Origin: a virus
IMG/VR virus record: IMGVR_UViG_3300024999_000080
Span: 1 to 64,000 of that record
Length of the DNA stretch: 64,000 nucleotides
Reading direction: 5' to 3' (one strand)
Shown: one piece after another, positions 29,358 through 38,619 of the stretch
How positions within the stretch are numbered: the stretch's first letter is position 1
Layout of the letters: every line of letters begins with the position of its first letter
Made by a program: the position numbers and the translations under genes
Notes under the pieces: model-generated
What the model was told of the DNA's origin: nothing
Seen by the model: the letters and a program-made list of their open reading frames with translations, nothing else
Database searches by the model: none

Positions 29358-29774
29358 ATGCAAAATGTAAGTGTAAGTGTAAGTGTAAGTGTAAATAAAG
29401 TTTCACAAGAGATAAAAAGAGGAGATATTTGGTTAGCAGAATTAGAAGGAAGTAAAGGTTCAGAAATGAAAATGGTACGCCCCGTTGTAATCATTCAAAA
29501 TAATTTAGGGAATAAATATAGCCCATGTTGCACTATAATTCCATTGACTAGTAAGGTTGGGAAACGATGGATGCCCACTCACACAACCCTACATAAGACG
29601 GTTTGCTTATCAACTTTGAGTATTGCTCTCGCAGAACAGGTTGCAACGATTTCAAAGGAACGATTGACAAAATTTATTGGAGTGGTCGAAAAGTCAGAAA
29701 TAGTTGCTATTGAAGATGCTATTATGATTCAGTTGGGAATCAAACCAAGAAATAATATTGCGTATGCAAATTAA
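29358..29774 (+). CDS. mazF: MazF/PemK endoribonuclease, no adjacent antitoxin
   Basis: KRGDIWLAEL, GSEMKMVRPVVIIQNN.GN..SP, PLTS, PTH, AEQV.TISKERL. Confidence 0.88.
   Translation: MQNVSVSVSVSVNKVSQEIKRGDIWLAELEGSKGSEMKMVRPVVIIQNNLGNKYSPCCTIIPLTSKVGKRWMPTHTTLHKTVCLSTLSIALAEQVATISKERLTKFIGVVEKSEIVAIEDAIMIQLGIKPRNNIAYAN
29367..29394 (+). repeat. (GTAAGT)4 in-frame microsatellite encoding VSVSVSVS
   Basis: Direct reading. Confidence 0.9.
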
Positions 29775-29820: not shown

Positions 29821-31374
29821 TTGGCAAAGGAGAATTGCCGAGTGCTGTTAACAAAGACGCTAACAATGAAATGGAGTGCAAATAATAAGGTATGGTTTGA
29901 AAGTAAGGGATATACTTTTACTAAATGGAAAGATGAATTTGAGATTAAGGTGGAAGATTTATCTGATGGTTCTGGGGCATTAGTTGATGTCCAATGTGAC
30001 GGATGTGGAGAAATATTAACTAATATGAAATGGCAATCATATATAAGAAGTTCTAAGAAAGATGGTAAATATTATTGTAAAAAATGTTCTTGTAAATTAT
30101 TTGATGGTGAAAATCAGAGAAAAACTAAGTTAAAAAGTAGCAAATCCTTTTACGATTGGTGCTATGAAAATTTACCAAGAGCAATAGCAAATTATATATT
30201 ATCAAAATGGGATTATGCTTTAAATATCAATAAGAACGGCAATATAATAAGTCCTAAAGATGTTAGTTTTAGTTCTACAGGTTTTGACGGTAAAGGATAT
30301 TGGTTTAAATGCCTTAAATATCCTGAACATGGATCTGAACAGAAACGTATTAGTAATTTTGTTAGCGGAATGGGTTTAGGTAACGTTATTACTTGCATTC
30401 AATGTAACATTATTTCTATTACCCATCCACATTTAATAAAATATCTGGTAAATAAAGAAGATGCGAATAAATATTCTTTTGGTTCAAATGAAAAAATACC
30501 CATGAATTGTGTTAATTGTGGATATGAAAAAAAATTAAGTTTTAATAAATTAGTAAGTAGAGGTTTCCCTTGTCCAAGGTGTTCAGATGGTATAAGCTAT
30601 CCTGAAAAATTTCTATTTTCATTCTTAGAACAATTAAATTTATATTTTAACTTTCAATTAACAAAAACAACTTTCAAATGGTGTGGCAAATATAAATATG
30701 ACTTTTACATAGAAATAATTAATGGAATAGTTGAGGCAGGAGGTTTGCAACACTATGACGATACTAAAGGTAGAAATTGGGGAGCATCATTAGAAGAAAT
30801 ACAAGAAAATGATTTCGACAAGGAATGGATTGCTAGAATAAATAAAATTAAGAATTACATAATTTTAGATTGTAGATATTCTGATATGAAATGGATTAAG
30901 CAATCTATAATGAAGTCTAGGTTGCTTATATTAGGATTTAAAGAGGAAGATATCGATTGGCTAAAGTGTCATGAGGCGGGTTGTAATAGTTTGGTTAAAA
31001 TTTCCTGTGATCTATGGAATAATGGAATGAAAAATACATCACAGATAGCAGATATAATAAAGGTGCATAGGGCTACTATTGTAAACTACTTAAAACAAGG
31101 AGTTAAACTTGAATGGTGTGACTATGATCCTAAAATAGCGATGACTGGTAACTATAGTAGAAGTGTTATATGTATAACTACTAGGGAGATATTTAATTCA
31201 ATTGCTGAAGCAGGAAACGTTTATAAAACAGATTGTAGTAGTATATCAAAATGTAGTAAAAATAAAAAGAAATACTCAGGATTACATTCAGAAACGGGAG
31301 ATAAATTAAAATGGATGTATTTAGTAGATTATGAGAATATGGTTAAATATCAAAATAATAATAAACCTTCATAA
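29821..31374 (+). CDS. Zn-ribbon + PD-(D/E)XK/Vsr-like endonuclease + NUMOD1-like (homing-endonuclease-type) protein
   Basis: Multiple CxxC; SYPEKF; YDFYI...IVEAGGLQHY; C-terminal VICITTREIFNSIAEA. Confidence 0.7.
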   Translation: MAKENCRVLLTKTLTMKWSANNKVWFESKGYTFTKWKDEFEIKVEDLSDGSGALVDVQCDGCGEILTNMKWQSYIRSSKKDGKYYCKKCSCKLFDGENQRKTKLKSSKSFYDWCYENLPRAIANYILSKWDYALNINKNGNIISPKDVSFSSTGFDGKGYWFKCLKYPEHGSEQKRISNFVSGMGLGNVITCIQCNIISITHPHLIKYLVNKEDANKYSFGSNEKIPMNCVNCGYEKKLSFNKLVSRGFPCPRCSDGISYPEKFLFSFLEQLNLYFNFQLTKTTFKWCGKYKYDFYIEIINGIVEAGGLQHYDDTKGRNWGASLEEIQENDFDKEWIARINKIKNYIILDCRYSDMKWIKQSIMKSRLLILGFKEEDIDWLKCHEAGCNSLVKISCDLWNNGMKNTSQIADIIKVHRATIVNYLKQGVKLEWCDYDPKIAMTGNYSRSVICITTREIFNSIAEAGNVYKTDCSSISKCSKNKKKYSGLHSETGDKLKWMYLVDYENMVKYQNNNKPS

Positions 31375-31422: not shown

Positions 31423-32043
31423 ATGGTTGAAACATTAATATTCAGTATTTTGTGCCTAAAAACAAAATTATATTTAAAGCTAGGCAAATTCCAAATACAT
31501 AAAGAATCATATCTAGTTAAACCAATACTAAAACAATGGAGTATTTATCCGGTAATACTTATGTCATTAATATATTGTATTTTTCAATATATGATTTTAA
31601 ACCATGATTATAGTTTTATACCATATCAAAAGATATTTAAAGATGCCTTGATCATGTCATACATAATATTAGGAGTCGATATTTTATTTAGGAATAAAAT
31701 ATATAAACCATTTATATTTGCTTGTTATAGTTTATTAAGTGGTTGTGGACTGAACGCTATTGTAATGCATTTTAACAATAAAAAGATGCCAATTTTCCCG
31801 ACATTTACTTATTCGACTGGCTATACACAGTATGATATGATTATAAATTCTTCTAAATATGGAGATTTTCATGTTCTTGGAGATCATACAACAAAATTGA
31901 TATTTTTAGCTGATGTATTCGATGTCTGTGGGTTTTCAATATGGTCAATCGGGGATATTTTGGTCAGGGTATTTGCTTTTATGATGGTATATTATTCAGT
32001 TAAAGAGGTTAATAAAATACATAAGAATAAAATTGTAAATTAA
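31423..32043 (+). CDS. DUF5317-family membrane protein
   Basis: Hydrophobic; LNAIVMHFNNKKMP...TKLIFLAD...SIGDI pattern. Confidence 0.75.
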   Translation: MVETLIFSILCLKTKLYLKLGKFQIHKESYLVKPILKQWSIYPVILMSLIYCIFQYMILNHDYSFIPYQKIFKDALIMSYIILGVDILFRNKIYKPFIFACYSLLSGCGLNAIVMHFNNKKMPIFPTFTYSTGYTQYDMIINSSKYGDFHVLGDHTTKLIFLADVFDVCGFSIWSIGDILVRVFAFMMVYYSVKEVNKIHKNKIVN

Positions 32044-32056
32044 TAAATAAATATAC

Positions 32057-32085
32057 TTGCATTACATTCTTGCATATGGTATACT
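32057..32085 (+). promoter_or_regulatory. sigmaA promoter for receptor-agrD
   Basis: TTGCAT-N17-TATACT with TG extension. Confidence 0.6.
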
Positions 32086-32125
32086 TGTTTTAGGTTAAGA
32101 AATGAATAAGAAAGAGGTAATACAT

Positions 32126-32941
32126 ATGCAAGGTGTAACAAATGCTTTATTGAATACTATTTTGGTAAGCATCCCAGAGGAATCATTTATTGTAATTATG
32201 ACATTGGTTTTTTTAAGAAGATTTGATATGTTGGACATCAGAATGTGGAAACACAGTTTGAAATGGATCATGGTTCCAACCTTGCCCGTAGCAATAATGA
32301 TAAACGTGTTTAGATATATAGTAATAATACCAAAACCATTAATGTCTTTAGCTTCATTTATATTAATGACAATTTTAATAATATTTATGATAATAAAAAA
32401 TAGTGTTGTTTTTGATAAAAAGTTATTATTTAAGACAATAATGTTTACAATATTAAGTTTTGTTGTGGTTGGATTAATAGAATTATTATATTATCCTATT
32501 TCACTCTCCTTGTTACATAAACAGATGTCTTATTTTAATAATAATATCCTATACAATCTTTTATTAGCAATTCCTACAAGAGTATTACAAATATGTATTG
32601 TGGCATTTATCATAATGAGGAAAAACAATGATATTGAGATAAATTTATTCAACACAATTGTGAGAAACAAGTTTTTTACAAAAAGTTTTATAATGATGAT
32701 AACTATTATGTTATTTGTAATAATTTATATGGGGAAGTTGCTAATGTTTGATAATATATTAGTGGAATTACAAGTCATTGATCAATTGTTCATAGTTTTA
32801 ATTGTTATAGTAACACCAATAATTTTAATTACTTGGTTCCTAATGTTTGTTAATTATTTATTAACAAAGGAAAAACAAATACAGCAGACTTACGAAAATC
32901 TTGTTATGCAAGATGACGTAATGCTTGATGTAGAAGATTAA
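32126..32941 (+). CDS. Multi-TM protein resembling an AgrC-type sensor domain, lacking a histidine-kinase domain
   Basis: About 7 hydrophobic segments and a short acidic tail; no H-box/N/G boxes; directly upstream of agrD. Confidence 0.55.
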   Translation: MQGVTNALLNTILVSIPEESFIVIMTLVFLRRFDMLDIRMWKHSLKWIMVPTLPVAIMINVFRYIVIIPKPLMSLASFILMTILIIFMIIKNSVVFDKKLLFKTIMFTILSFVVVGLIELLYYPISLSLLHKQMSYFNNNILYNLLLAIPTRVLQICIVAFIIMRKNNDIEINLFNTIVRNKFFTKSFIMMITIMLFVIIYMGKLLMFDNILVELQVIDQLFIVLIVIVTPIILITWFLMFVNYLLTKEKQIQQTYENLVMQDDVMLDVED

Positions 32942-33090: not shown

Positions 33091-33120
33091 TATAGGGAGG
33101 GACTTCGGTTCTTCCCTATA
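33091..33120 (+). terminator. 13-bp hairpin with C(UUCG)G tetraloop after agrD
   Basis: TATAGGGAGGGAC-TTCG-GTTCTTCCCTATA. Confidence 0.75.
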
Positions 33121-33188: not shown

Positions 33189-33252
33189 ATTAATAAGGAA
33201 ATAATAAAAAATTATAAATATCTTATTAGAGATGAAGAGGAGATGTGTTATT

Positions 33253-34035
33253 ATGTTAAACAAATTCTTTACTAAAAACACCAATACCGAGGAAAATACC
33301 AAAAAAGATTTCAAAAAATTAGCTAACTATGTAATTCATGCCAAAGGTCATAGGACGATCAATGGATTTGCAGCAGATATGAAAACCGACTCTGAATATC
33401 TAACTCTTGTTGTTAATGCAAGAATAAACTCTTATCCAGATATAAAATTTCTTAAAACCATCGCTGACAATTCTGATGGTAGAGTATCTTTAAAGGATTT
33501 AACATTGGCGTGTGGGTATTCAAATTACACAAATAATGATATGGAACAGATAAAAAATATTGAAGTCAGAAGAGGAACTTTTTGCTATGTTAGTTTGGGT
33601 GATGTCATAGATTCAGAGTATGGGGGAAATCGATTATGTTTAGTTATACAAAATGATGTAGGGAATCACTTCTCAAGCACTTCAATTATTTTACCTCTCA
33701 CTAGTAGAAAACGTAGTAAGCTTCCCACCCACGTTGAAGTTGGGCCTAAAAATTGCGGATTGCCCCAAGAATCAATTATTAGTTGTGAGCAAATTCGTTG
33801 TGTATCAAAAAGGAGACTTAGCCAAAACGGGATAGTTCAGAAGGTTTCAGAATGCCCTTCAGAAATTATGTTATTGGTTGAGGTTGCCATGCTGAAGGCA
33901 CAAGGGGTTATTCATCTTAAAATGAATGAACAAGAAGCAGTTCAATATCTAATGAATATGAACAAGCAAAAAACATATCAGTATCAAAATAATTATAATC
34001 GTAGTGCAAGTCAGCAGGTTGCCTTTGCACGATAA
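33253..34035 (+). CDS. Xre-HTH-MazF/PemK fusion protein
   Basis: N-terminal RTINGFAADM...YPDIKFLKTIA...LTLACGY (HTH-like); C-terminal RRG..., SEYGGNRLCLVIQNDVGN, PLTS, KLPTHV, CEQIRCVSKRRL. Confidence 0.85.
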   Translation: MLNKFFTKNTNTEENTKKDFKKLANYVIHAKGHRTINGFAADMKTDSEYLTLVVNARINSYPDIKFLKTIADNSDGRVSLKDLTLACGYSNYTNNDMEQIKNIEVRRGTFCYVSLGDVIDSEYGGNRLCLVIQNDVGNHFSSTSIILPLTSRKRSKLPTHVEVGPKNCGLPQESIISCEQIRCVSKRRLSQNGIVQKVSECPSEIMLLVEVAMLKAQGVIHLKMNEQEAVQYLMNMNKQKTYQYQNNYNRSASQQVAFAR

Positions 34036-34059: not shown

Positions 34060-34683
34060 ATGAGTTTTATTGAAAATGTTTCAAATTATTCTGCTAGGTG
34101 GTTGGCATCAAAAGTACCTAATGATAAATATCCTACAGTAGAAGATCAAATTGAGGTTTTTACCTATGGTTTTATGGTTATATGGGGATTTATATTTAAG
34201 ATCATATTGATGGTATCATTAGCATATATCTTTAATATTATAATCCCTATTATAATATTAACATTGACTTTCAGTAGTTTAAGAATTATCGCAGGAGGAT
34301 ACCATTTAAAGACCTATAATCGCTGTATGATTATTAGTGCTTTGCAATTCATTGTATCAGCATTAATAATCAAACACACATATCAATATTGGCCTATCCA
34401 AAACATCTATTCTCTGCTATTCTTTTGTGTATTAACGACACTATATATAATCTTCAGATATATTCCAAGAGACACACCCAACAAACCCATTATAGACCCT
34501 TTACAGATTAAAAAGTTTAAACGATGGTCATTATACTACCTTATCGCATGGACAGTTGTAATGACCATCTTCCTACTGTTTAATGTACATATAATTGTAA
34601 TTGCAAGTTGTTTTGGGTTATTGTTGGAGCTTTTTAGTGTGGGTAGAATAGGGCAATCGATATACTCTAAGCTAGATTCATAA
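34060..34683 (+). CDS. agrB: Accessory gene regulator B (AIP-processing membrane peptidase)
   Basis: EVFTYG, LRIIAGGYHLKTYNRC (catalytic H/C), PRDTPNKPI. Confidence 0.92.
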   Translation: MSFIENVSNYSARWLASKVPNDKYPTVEDQIEVFTYGFMVIWGFIFKIILMVSLAYIFNIIIPIIILTLTFSSLRIIAGGYHLKTYNRCMIISALQFIVSALIIKHTYQYWPIQNIYSLLFFCVLTTLYIIFRYIPRDTPNKPIIDPLQIKKFKRWSLYYLIAWTVVMTIFLLFNVHIIVIASCFGLLLELFSVGRIGQSIYSKLDS

Positions 34684-34783: not shown

Positions 34784-35512
34784 TTGGAAACATATAAAGA
34801 TTTAACTGGATTAGTATTTAATAATTGGACTGTTCTAGAATTATCGAACAGAACAAATAAGAAAGATGATAGATATTGGAAATGCCGTTGTAATTGCGAA
34901 TATAAAACAATTAAACATGTAGCAGAAAGGGCATTGTCTTTTGGCACATCAAGAAGTTGTGGTTGTTTACTAGGAAAAATACCATCTAAAAAAATTGCAA
35001 AGGTTAAACCTGATAAAATATTAAAACCTCCAAAAGACAAAATAGTTAAACCTAAAATCGTAAAACCTTTAAAAATTCTAAAGAAAAGAATTTATAAAGT
35101 AAAAATATCTGATAGTAAAGAAATTAAAATATCATACAACAAAAGAATAATGAGCATTTATAGCGGAATGAAACAAAGATGCTATAACCCTAAAGCTAAA
35201 GGTTTTAAATATTATGGGGGCAAAGGAGTTGTTATTTGTGATGAGTGGTTAAATGATAGAAAGTTATTTTATAATTGGGCAATAAACAATGGATATTCTG
35301 ATGAATTAACTATTGACAGAATAGAAAATGATGGGAATTATGAACCAGACAATTGCAGGTGGACTACTTGGGAAGAGCAAGCCAATAATAAATCTAATAC
35401 TGTATATTATAGATATGAAGGAGAAATTAAATCTTCATTGGATTGGTGCAAAGAAACTTGGTTAACTTTTGAAACTTTAAAGAACATATTTGATATACAT
35501 ATCCTGCATTAA
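34784..35512 (+). CDS. HNH homing endonuclease
   Basis: WKCRCNC, SCGC, MKQRCYNP, YGGKG, LTIDRIENDGNYEPDNCRW. Confidence 0.88.
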   Translation: METYKDLTGLVFNNWTVLELSNRTNKKDDRYWKCRCNCEYKTIKHVAERALSFGTSRSCGCLLGKIPSKKIAKVKPDKILKPPKDKIVKPKIVKPLKILKKRIYKVKISDSKEIKISYNKRIMSIYSGMKQRCYNPKAKGFKYYGGKGVVICDEWLNDRKLFYNWAINNGYSDELTIDRIENDGNYEPDNCRWTTWEEQANNKSNTVYYRYEGEIKSSLDWCKETWLTFETLKNIFDIHILH

Positions 35513-36185: not shown

Positions 36186-37544
36186 ATGCTTAAAGAAAAA
36201 TCAGTTGAATTGATCCAAGAATTAAATCCATTAATCGTTAAATATTCTAGCAATGACAAAGTAAGGAAAATAATTTTAGATGAGTTCTCTAAGAGGAATA
36301 TGAGTGGTCGTTTAGCACTTTCTATCCTTAATGAGAAAAGGGCATTATCAACATTAGACATTGATGAAGGTAAAGATTTAGTATTATTATTTGTTTTTAC
36401 AAATGCAATGTATGATGCATTAAATTTTAAAACAGATGATGATTCTCCAATTTTAGGAGATATCGATGAAGTATTAAGTATTGTTCCAAGCAATTTCTTT
36501 AATGAAATAGAAATGCAGAATATGGAAAATTATAAAGAGGAGAAAAGAGTAGAGACGAAAAAGCAATATGTGTTTCATAATATGCTTCGTGCGGCTGATG
36601 GGCATTATAAAGGTTTAGATCATGCTAAACATCTTGCAGAAATATATGCAGAAAATGAAATTATTTATAATTTTAAGAATCAACGTGATCCGCATATTGA
36701 TATTTATGGAGAAAAGAGAATTCAACTTGATAAAAACAAAGTAGAACGAATAATGAATAGACTGCTTGAAGGAATTCAATTTTCAGATGATATCAAATTA
36801 AATATACTTCATGATGGTGAAGATGAATTATATTTTAATGAAAAAACTGGAGATTTAACCTATATTTCTGGAAGTATTAATATATTTGATGGTTATCATA
36901 GACTCATAGCTAATTCTTTAGCTATCGCAAAAAATGCAGAATTAGAGTTTAACTGGGGGTTAGTAATTACTAATTTCAGTGAGAATAAAACATTAGAATT
37001 TATGACCCAAGTTAATGAGCAAAAACCCATGAAAAAAGAGCATATAAAGAACCTAGATTCTTCAAGATTGGGAAATGTTGTAGTAGATGCAATTAGAGAC
37101 ATTGGTACTAGTGAATTTGGTCAGAATATTAAAGAATCAGATGCAGAATTGAAGTTTTCTGGTATGACAAAAAAGTCTACTTTAGCTATTAGTATAGAAG
37201 AATGTTATAAGGAAAAACTAACCAATAGACTTCAAGCAAAGCCCATAGCAAAGCATATTGCTAACGTTATGGACTATATCATTGGATTGAATGTTGAAGA
37301 GTTTATAGAGCGTCCTGACGCTTCTCAGACATATATCAACCACAAGAATATGTTCTCTGGATATGTTGCTTTATCAGAAAGATTATATGATGTAAAGAAT
37401 TGGGAAGACTTATTAGAAGAAATTCTTAATCAAATTGATTTCAGTGTTAAAAATCCTTTCTGGAAAGATATTGGAATATCAGATTCCGATATGAAAAAAT
37501 CTACCAGAAATAACCTATATAAATTCTTTCAGAAATTAGTTTGA
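36186..37544 (+). CDS. DGQHR/DndB (ParB-Srx-like) domain protein, SPbeta YopQ-like
   Basis: NQRD, INIFDGYHRL, QVNEQKPM; position upstream of a recombinase-fold gene. Confidence 0.6.
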   Translation: MLKEKSVELIQELNPLIVKYSSNDKVRKIILDEFSKRNMSGRLALSILNEKRALSTLDIDEGKDLVLLFVFTNAMYDALNFKTDDDSPILGDIDEVLSIVPSNFFNEIEMQNMENYKEEKRVETKKQYVFHNMLRAADGHYKGLDHAKHLAEIYAENEIIYNFKNQRDPHIDIYGEKRIQLDKNKVERIMNRLLEGIQFSDDIKLNILHDGEDELYFNEKTGDLTYISGSINIFDGYHRLIANSLAIAKNAELEFNWGLVITNFSENKTLEFMTQVNEQKPMKKEHIKNLDSSRLGNVVVDAIRDIGTSEFGQNIKESDAELKFSGMTKKSTLAISIEECYKEKLTNRLQAKPIAKHIANVMDYIIGLNVEEFIERPDASQTYINHKNMFSGYVALSERLYDVKNWEDLLEEILNQIDFSVKNPFWKDIGISDSDMKKSTRNNLYKFFQKLV

Positions 37545-37572
37545 TTAATATATTTAATAAGGGGTGTTTAAT

Positions 37573-38619
37573 ATGTCCATCAATGAAGTTAACGAAGAAT
37601 TGCAAGATGAAGAGGTAGTATTTGAGGTTGATTCAGAAGTTAAAAAGGAGTTTCTAGAAAATCAATTAAAATCTACTAGAAGTTTCTACACTTATGTCCT
37701 CAAAAGAGCAGATGAATTTGAAACACAGGTTGGCAAGAAAATTTATGACTTCAATATTGAAGATCGTGATGAAATGCTAACTGTTCAATTCAAGAATAAG
37801 AACAAATGGACGTTTCAATCTGCTTTATCTCCTTTAAAAACTTATGTTGACTTCTGTATATCTAAAAGTTTAGTTAGACATAATGAGAACAGATTTATGA
37901 CCATTCTTCCTGCTGATTATAAGGATTATATTAATGACCAAGCACAATGTAATTCTTATATTCCTTTATCTAAATCTAGAGAACTTCAAAAAAGGTTGAA
38001 AAATGATCAAGATAAATTGATTATAGAGTTATCTAGTTTGTCTGTCAGAGGAAGAACTGAAAAGGGGAATACTCTTGAAGAACTCGTAAATTTAAAGGTT
38101 AAAGATATTAAATGGAAGACTAAAGAATTATATCTTACTAAAAACAATGGTGAACAAAGATATATTGAAACTGATGATTACACATTAGGTTTACTCAAAC
38201 GAGTTATAAATCAAACTTTCTATGTCTCTAATAATGGGTTAAAATCTAAGAAAAATGAGGATGGTATTTATGAAGAGACTAATAGAGGTAGGGCTATAAG
38301 TCCGACTGAATATGTATTTAGAGTTCCCGGAAAGAACAGATTAGGTAAAGTAGATTATCAATTTTTCACTAGCAGAATTCAAAGGATGCAAGGTTGGTTA
38401 GAAGCTCCTTATTTGACTAGTTCGAATTTATACTTCTCAGCGATTTTAGACTATGCAAAAGAGAAGATGGATGAAAAAAAGGCAAAAGGAGAAAAATGTG
38501 AATTAACCAGAGAAGACTATATTCAAATTAATGAGCGATTTGAGTTTGGTGAAAATGGAGAAAAATATGTATTCAAAACCAGAGATTTAGTTAAAATGTA
38601 TTTTGGTAATGGAGAGTAA
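37573..38619 (+). CDS. Tyrosine-recombinase-fold protein with degenerate catalytic box II; YopR/MrpR-like master repressor candidate
   Basis: SAM-like N-terminus (LKTYVDFC); RG....LEELVNLKVKDI box I; TSSNLYFS replaces HxLRH. Confidence 0.65.
   Translation: MSINEVNEELQDEEVVFEVDSEVKKEFLENQLKSTRSFYTYVLKRADEFETQVGKKIYDFNIEDRDEMLTVQFKNKNKWTFQSALSPLKTYVDFCISKSLVRHNENRFMTILPADYKDYINDQAQCNSYIPLSKSRELQKRLKNDQDKLIIELSSLSVRGRTEKGNTLEELVNLKVKDIKWKTKELYLTKNNGEQRYIETDDYTLGLLKRVINQTFYVSNNGLKSKKNEDGIYEETNRGRAISPTEYVFRVPGKNRLGKVDYQFFTSRIQRMQGWLEAPYLTSSNLYFSAILDYAKEKMDEKKAKGEKCELTREDYIQINERFEFGENGEKYVFKTRDLVKMYFGNGE

Follow-up and report, generated by a model that had tools for sequence, protein, structure and literature searches.

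The locus considered here raises the question of what a membrane protein resembling the sensor half of an AgrC-type kinase might do in a bacteriophage when the kinase itself is missing. The sensor gene encodes no kinase domain and lies just upstream of agrD, and its product may therefore read a phage signal without phosphorylation. The window, that is, the whole stretch of DNA analysed, covers 64,000 nucleotides (positions 1 to 64,000) of the 76.9-kb IMG/VR virus record IMGVR_UViG_3300024999_000080, which is rated 44% complete. The GC content is approximately 29% and the likely genes all lie on the + strand in the stretch of the window examined; the same stretch is present in three groundwater DNA runs from one study. 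The window belongs to a large groundwater phage of the Clostridium type. Comparisons were drawn with twelve distinct viral contigs (L001-L013, among which L006-L009 are nearly identical) and with one contig of a Clostridium MAG (L014) that bears the same cassette. Two relatives are rated 100% complete, one of 230 kb and one of 166.7 kb with terminal repeats (L003).

The phage agr cassette

The gene order mazF-DUF5317-sensor-agrD-MazF fusion-agrB is kept in L001-L014, over sensor identities that fall as low as 33%, the exceptions being L011, without DUF5317, and L013, without the upstream mazF. In the window, the cassette and its surroundings comprise the following features, of which the promoter-like site and the hairpin were read from the sequence.

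29358..29774, + strand: stand-alone MazF/PemK toxin homologue, the first cassette gene (Pfam PemK_toxin, E 6e-26)
29821..31374, + strand: homing/HNH endonuclease-like gene (PHROG homing/HNH families, E 1e-15 to 1e-53)
31423..32043, + strand: membrane protein of the DUF5317 family, encoded directly before the sensor gene (Pfam PF17248, E 5.5e-19)
32057..32085, + strand: promoter-like site ahead of the sensor gene, TTGCAT-17 nt-TGgTATACT
32126..32941, + strand: putative AgrC-type sensor-domain protein without a kinase, 271 aa, 7-TM, with a conserved acidic C-terminal helix
32962..33078, + strand: agrD, encoding a 38-aa precursor (TIGR04223, 19.6 bits, cut-off 19)
33093..33118, + strand: 11-bp hairpin after agrD, with a UUCG loop and no T-run
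33232..34035, + strand: tentatively regulator-like N-terminal domain fused to MazF (PemK at residues 113-217, E 5e-21)
34060..34683, + strand: AgrB peptidase/cyclase homologue (Pfam AgrB, E 3e-35)
34784..35512, + strand: HNH endonuclease gene after agrB (PHROG HNH endonuclease, E 3e-58)
36186-37544: DndB-like protein (PF14072, E 1.5e-6, just under the cut-off)
37564-38619: protein with an integrase fold and, at its N-terminus, an MrpR core-binding domain (PF22822, MrpR_N_CB, E 1.5e-12)

The sensor ATG at 32126 is preceded 8 nt upstream by an AGAGG ribosome-binding site and matches the MQGV start common to most of the homologues; the frame stops at 32941. A scan of this AT-rich region for consensus promoters returned 65 sites against 53 expected, a signal at the level of chance. 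The likely agrD ATG (32962) stands behind a strong AAAGGAGGTGA ribosome-binding site, 20 nt past the sensor stop. A terminator scan, whose signal is not separable from chance in AT-rich DNA, detected no terminator-like site between the two genes and did not call the hairpin at 33093..33118 a terminator. Co-transcription of the sensor gene with agrD, which the original prediction had taken as given, is likely because no such site intervenes, and stands here as a probable arrangement and not as an observed one.

The peptide precursor is predicted to yield a five-residue ring, SWLGA, followed by HQPKSP, and the AgrB translation presents a His with a Cys seven residues further on (GGYH......C). 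The MazF fusion matches the EndoA/YdcE structures (E 1e-27) and probably starts at 33253, since the conserved Met is residue 8. Its N-terminal domain may be regarded, with some reserve, as regulator-like, from a weak match of residues 26-90 to a PHROG 'transcriptional regulator' family (E 2e-4). The full-length regulator-MazF fusion is conserved in 12 loci, and a conserved A-F/Y-A motif closes its C-terminus in all 12. The cassette holds two MazF homologues (33232-34035 and 29358-29774) and no recognisable MazE.

A mazF orthologue lies upstream of the cassette in 11 of the 12 distinct phage loci, and the DUF5317 gene adjoins the sensor gene in as many. The endonuclease gene between mazF and DUF5317 is found in only some relatives and is missing from L001, L003, L010 and L014; both endonuclease genes (29821-31374 and 34784-35512) look like mobile insertions, being absent or located elsewhere in relatives. 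Several related phages carry, after agrB, a second and diverged sensor paralogue with a different tail and no agrD of its own (L002:8770-9621, L004:8785-9618, L005:6022-6822, L006:5992-6813 and L010:8851-9147; also L007-L009), while the record of this window has a single sensor copy. Just downstream of the agr cassette, the DndB-like and MrpR_N_CB genes resemble, by their domain matches, an SPbeta-like repressor block.

A seven-helix membrane protein without a kinase

The AlphaFold2 model of the sensor, built with 28 homologues (pLDDT 84, pTM 0.76), displays seven long helices at residues 3-37, 46-72, 78-100, 106-138, 149-175, 190-216 and 225-278 (residue numbers refer to the 279-aa ORF beginning at 32102). 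The seventh reaches approximately 28 residues past the membrane into the cytoplasm, and seven Asp or Glu residues fall within the final 28 of the chain. The roughly seven transmembrane helices and the acidic C-terminal tail of the original prediction are thus both borne out, and the tail proves to be among the best-conserved parts of the protein. An N-out/C-in topology fits the distribution of Lys and Arg in the loops, which number 4, 3 and 3 in those assigned to the inside and 1, 1 and 0 in those assigned to the outside. Within the phage family, TM1, cytoplasmic loop 1 and the C-terminal helix are the best conserved (entropy 0.75-0.89) and TM3-TM7 the most variable (entropy 1.6-2.1). The invariant alignment columns, together with AlphaFold2 models of one phage and one bacterial member, describe a family of 250-326 aa with seven TM helices, S-x-P-E in TM1, Glu-...-Pro in TM4 and Pro-x-Arg in TM5, features that the sensor displays; the family alignment contains no conserved His.

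Searches with the sensor against Pfam, NCBIfam, PHROGs and PDB sequences returned no kinase, HisKA or ATPase domain, in keeping with the lack of an H-box and of ATPase boxes first read from the translation. The missing response regulator, also claimed at the outset for the window, holds over a wider range, as neither HATPase_c_5 nor LytTR was found in the 76.9-kb record or in the 230-kb and 166.7-kb relatives rated complete; the two complete relatives are also devoid of GGDEF and HD-GYP domains. All parts of a kinase being missing, the gene could be taken for a recently truncated or decaying agrC without function. A word-indexed search returned 45 sensor homologues, none with a Pfam domain, and the full-length ones measure 266-286 aa. 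A profile search across all 1.84 billion representative proteins of any length (threshold E 1e-3) gave 233 homologue clusters at 50% identity, of which the 150 listed are all of 326 aa or less. Recent truncation, the case named in the original prediction as the one that would undo it, fails because none of these 150 listed clusters carries a kinase. A length of about 270 aa conserved among the 45 close homologues, a tail that ranks with the best-conserved segments and a synteny maintained down to 33% identity argue against decay as well, and a functionless remnant is therefore most improbable. Since the cassette is conserved to this same depth and the complete relatives are free of kinases, the kinase-less state is old and stable: the sensor has been without a kinase for a long time.

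The family has little presence in reference collections. No published description of it was found, and the sensor has no match in PHROGs, Pfam, NCBIfam or the phage collection (DNA and protein), nor in the PDB by single sequence or profile. Foldseek comparison of the phage and bacterial models with the PDB and BFVD gave no match at E <=1e-3, and the best scores of a VIA wide search (Z 8.2 and 7.8) fell on generic helical proteins. The ESM Atlas returned unnamed clusters and one automatic label of 'sensory transduction kinase' at 0.88, which serves as a lead only. The acidic tail, for which a MazE-like antitoxin was considered, matches no sequence family in Pfam or PHROGs. The CPBP/CAAX protease motif is EExxxR. 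An MroQ-like protease was likewise considered for the sensor and set aside from the alignment, in which the conserved 'PEE' does not fit that motif and no His is conserved.

Kinship with AgrC-class kinases

The family profile matches the N-terminal 245 residues of a bacterial 453-aa protein whose C-terminal half is composed of SPOB_a and HATPase_c_5, and whose gene adjoins that of a Response_reg+LytTR regulator. Profiles were compared by hhalign, the kinase being represented by 68 full-length members of its family (the 452-aa kinase family), with the following results.

Sensor family against kinase sensor half: 97.1%, E 4.9e-11, 150 columns
Phage-only alignment against kinase sensor half: 89.6%, E 1.9e-6, 132 columns
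Long bacterial forms against full-length kinase: 97.1%, E 5.2e-11, 263 columns
Short form (approximately 160 aa) against sensor family: 97.1%, E 4.8e-11, 141 columns
Short form against kinase sensor half: 98.8%, E 7e-17, 134 columns
Short form against agrB-linked AgrC sensor: 73%, E 3e-5, 121 columns

The reversed kinase alignment, used as a control, scores 12, and the DUF5317, AgrB and GGDEF-enzyme membrane-domain controls reach at most 1.1% against all of the sensor, kinase and short-form profiles. A narrow profile of the agrB-linked Clostridium AgrC sensor yields a weak co-linear match to the sensor family (score 25.5, 7.7%) that still exceeds the reversed control and 20 block-shuffled controls. 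The comparisons support placing the sensor as a stand-alone member of the AgrC-class sensor-domain superfamily, homologous to the sensor halves of kinases. The 'AgrC-like' label of the original prediction is upheld in this sense, by a match to a kinase sensor half with clean controls, but less so for a true agrB-linked AgrC sensor, to which the direct link is weak, the short form being the only bridge. The kinase most closely related to the family does not have agrBD beside it, and peptide sensing is accordingly suggested by the class and not by an orthologue. The phage family has its TM1 Pro-Glu in common with the short form and with the 452-aa kinase family, and the TM4 Glu occurs in these three as well as in true AgrC; as they are shared with kinases, these are residues of the sensor fold and not a private active site.

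The bacterial members of the family are longer (285-326 aa) and align to the kinase from TM1 through the DHp helix pair, with the position of the RHDF phospho-acceptor His falling in a column that is not His in the bacterial long forms. The AlphaFold2 model of one such form (pLDDT 91) has these seven helices again, TM7 reaching as far as residue 281 and a further helix folding back against it to form a helical hairpin. We infer from the alignment that this hairpin is a DHp remnant without the phospho-acceptor His, and go no further because the hairpin alone is too generic: the long-form tail by itself reaches only P 0.01 against DHp by hhalign, Pfam finds no SPOB_a in the long-form tails, and the PhoR DHp domain, at Z 6.5 in the VIA wide search, is tied with many helical hairpins and thus does not discriminate. 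Phage members retain only the first part of the long-form cytoplasmic helix. Directly upstream of some long-form genes lies that of a conserved protein of approximately 125 aa with no Pfam match (L039:8994-9371, L042:7521-7916 and L043:8957-9328).

Linkage to agrD and agrB, and possible roles

An agrD-like ORF, defined by a five-residue ring that starts with Ser or Cys and is followed by H/Y/F-Q-P, comes directly after the family gene in every one of the 12 phage loci and in 10 of the 14 bacterial ones, at gaps of -22 to +56 nt that include some overlaps. Among 17 agrB genes in five bacterial genomes, eight stand beside a GHKL kinase, four beside a family member and five alone, and none has both neighbours. 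In phages and in Clostridia alike, the sensor gene thus keeps close company with agrD, agrB and DUF5317. Four genomes (G051, G364, G387 and G185) hold a solitary sensor-agrD pair together with one solitary agrB that has no adjacent agrD, and their agr system appears to be split across the chromosome; the solitary agrB genes are those of L048, L049, L050 and L051, and the sensor-agrD pairs, with long-form sensors in housekeeping neighbourhoods, those of L038-L042. The bacterial long-form genes of L040, L042, L043 and L045, unlike their close relatives in L039 and L041, have no agrD-like ORF downstream, the peptide gene being either lost or located elsewhere.

TM3-TM7 of the sensor are the fastest-evolving part of the cassette, with a mean distance of 0.64 against 0.44-0.51 for the other proteins. 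Sensor distance follows peptide distance when the MazF fusion is controlled for (partial r 0.36-0.67, p about 0.001-0.002), a covariation confounded by shared ancestry and for that reason counted as weak evidence; the corresponding relation for AgrB is r 0.29 (p 0.06). In the mechanism proposed, the sensor would bind, through TM3-TM7, the cyclic peptide that phage AgrB would make from phage AgrD (predicted ring SWLGA), and would relay the signal to a partner by contact, not by phosphotransfer, through the conserved cytoplasmic face that loop 1 forms with the C-terminal helix. Candidate partners are the stand-alone MazF, the regulator-MazF fusion, DUF5317, or AgrB in a feedback role; a single co-folding of the sensor with two copies of the MazF fusion, run without controls, gave an ipSAE of 0.00, a value that counts neither for nor against such contact. 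The output may bias the phage between lysis and lysogeny, as the cassette adjoins the SPbeta-like repressor block. Such a contact-signalling peptide sensor, to which we give an even chance, is favoured because the pattern fits a ligand-binding module, with a variable part that would follow the peptide and a constant cytoplasmic face that would meet a constant partner, and because kinase and sensor exclude one another beside agrB.

Relatives of the sensor in Clostridia bear upon this reading. In a Clostridium MAG of the host type, genes for DUF5317, a 161-aa membrane protein, AgrB and AgrD follow in this order, and the 161-aa short form is present in 78 of 149 genomes of that bacterial family. 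It is accompanied by both AgrB and DUF5317 in 28 of 30 loci, and by an AgrD-like ORF or match in all but two. The short form is homologous to the sensor over its first five helices; it has the same partners (DUF5317, encoded by the first gene of the operon, AgrB and AgrD) and is also kinase-less, but it is devoid of TM6-7 and the cytoplasmic tail and precedes agrB, whereas the phage sensor precedes agrD. Compared by gene order, the operon has the layout of the C. perfringens agr locus, CPE1563-CPE1562-agrB-agrD, which is co-transcribed and of which only a four-gene construct complemented an agrB mutant (PMC2706048). CPE1563 and CPE1562 have no known function (PMC2706048, PMC8043184), and the reported peptide receptor of C. 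perfringens is VirS (PMC8043184).

In five of six clostridial short-form operons, agrD is followed by a gene for a GGDEF+HD-GYP membrane protein, approximately 560-570 aa in length (L102:4195-5898, L104:9394-11097, L105:5099-6817, L106:5658-7340 and L107:9793-11475), and in other places the DUF5317 gene has an overlap with the end of a gene for a membrane HD-GYP protein (L065:147-1427 and L067:75-1412). This proximity suggests that DUF5317 may have a connection with c-di-GMP turnover, as perhaps have agr operons of this type. A kinship between the sensor and the membrane domain of the GGDEF-HD-GYP protein was considered and rejected on the profile comparison (<=1.1%).

VirS as the reported receptor in C. 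perfringens (PMC8043184) counts against the contact sensor, since relatives may then serve peptide production, as does the separation of its closest kinase relative from agrBD. The sensor may instead assist in the production or export of the cyclic peptide. With DUF5317 it would then aid AgrB in holding AgrD or the peptide, handing it over, trimming it or releasing it, by means of a membrane pocket for peptides that it owes to an ancestral sensor. In favour of this, genes of the family invariably accompany agrD and agrB and not a gene for an output, the sensor gene lies very near agrD and in places overlaps it, and the short relative belongs to the common DUF5317-short-agrB-agrD operon, whose C. 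perfringens match complemented only as a four-gene construct (PMC2706048) and has VirS as its reported receptor (PMC8043184). An accessory role has less to say of residues in TM1 and TM4 that are common to true kinases, or of the DHp-like hairpin of the long forms and the loop and tail of the phage proteins, which have no obvious use in export. Canonical agrBDCA-type loci without a family protein, and extra sensor paralogues without agrD, also speak against it; we regard such a role as unlikely.

The sensor may otherwise act upon host signalling and not relay a signal internal to the phage. It could be a sink for host or phage peptide, or it could modulate a membrane enzyme of the host; an AgrC-class kinase is one candidate, and the 6TM-GGDEF-HD-GYP protein, whose gene comes after agrD in operons of the host type, is another. 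A peptide sink and the poisoning of host AgrC were also raised in the original prediction, beside sequestration of HTH-MazF, and all three mechanisms stay conjectural. Kinase, LytTR, GGDEF and HD-GYP proteins are all missing from the phages, and in the Clostridium MAG the short-form operon has a GGDEF+HD-GYP gene behind it and an AgrC-like kinase is linked to an agrB; use of the host AgrA has been proposed for phiCDHM1 (PMC3901668). However, a search of 29 further genomes from the presumed host genus found no full-length chromosomal 7-TM relative with which the phage protein could form heterodimers, a result that bears on partners of this sensor type. The sensor of host AgrC resembles the family only remotely, and the GGDEF enzyme has an unrelated membrane domain. 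A simple sink, moreover, needs no strongly conserved cytoplasmic loop and tail, and an action of this kind on the host is improbable.

The contact-signalling sensor may be set beside several known systems. AgrC/HPK10 kinases, composed of a polytopic sensor, an SPOB_a-type DHp and HATPase_c_5 and working with a LytTR partner, share with it the seven-helix N-out module, the TM4 Glu, the company of agrD and agrB and, in the sensor half of one kinase family, a 97% profile match. The phage protein differs in having neither the phospho-acceptor His nor the ATPase domain, its phage encodes no LytTR regulator, and its gene lies upstream of agrD, whereas that of AgrC lies downstream. In the HdrRM and BrsRM systems of Streptococcus mutans, the membrane proteins HdrM and BrsM control regulators without phosphorylation (PMC6193735). 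They offer a functional precedent, with no claim of sequence kinship, for control of a DNA-binding regulator in the cytoplasm by a protein in the membrane (PMC6193735), but they have no known Agr-type peptide ligand and their regulator is of the LytTR type, not a MazF fusion. The agr3 locus of the Clostridioides difficile phage phiCDHM1 likewise brings together phage agrB, agrD and a sensor gene without a response regulator, although its AgrC bears the GHKL ATPase domain that the sensor described here does not (PMC3901668); the present cassette also includes DUF5317 and a pair of MazF genes. In SPbeta-like Bacillus phages, arbitrium (AimR-AimP-AimX) likewise places a phage peptide module beside an MrpR-type repressor block, and MazF is a lysis-lysogeny effector in arbitrium phages (PMC10769878). 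Arbitrium relies on a linear imported peptide, a cytoplasmic receptor and the MazF of the host (PMC10769878), whereas the phage described here would use a cyclic Agr-type peptide, a membrane candidate receptor and MazFs that it encodes itself, the functional parallel being conjectural.

In a wider reading, AgrC-type sensors without a kinase would form a phosphorylation-free branch of Agr signalling. The sensor of this SPbeta-like phage would read the cyclic peptide of the phage itself and control the MazF ribonucleases of the cassette by contact, thereby setting lysis or lysogeny, and the bacterial relatives would be the missing receptors or co-receptors of 'orphan' agrBD loci in Clostridia; taken as a whole, this reading is rather unlikely.

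Many Clostridia, pathogens among them, have agrBD loci to which no receptor is linked, and since 2009 no function has been assigned to the additional pair of genes in the agr operon of C. perfringens. The homology of the sensor and of its short relative to the sensor domains of kinases points to a testable role for both, the binding of the peptide. Were the role one of making or exporting the peptide, it would bear on the way in which Agr peptides are released from the cell, a question still without an answer. A signalling route without phosphorylation from an AgrC-type sensor has not yet been described, and if the sensor does signal by contact to a MazF or another partner, it would constitute a new route of phage communication and a new type of bacterial signal transduction. 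Should the phage read its own peptide by way of its MazFs, the cassette would be a cyclic-peptide counterpart of arbitrium.
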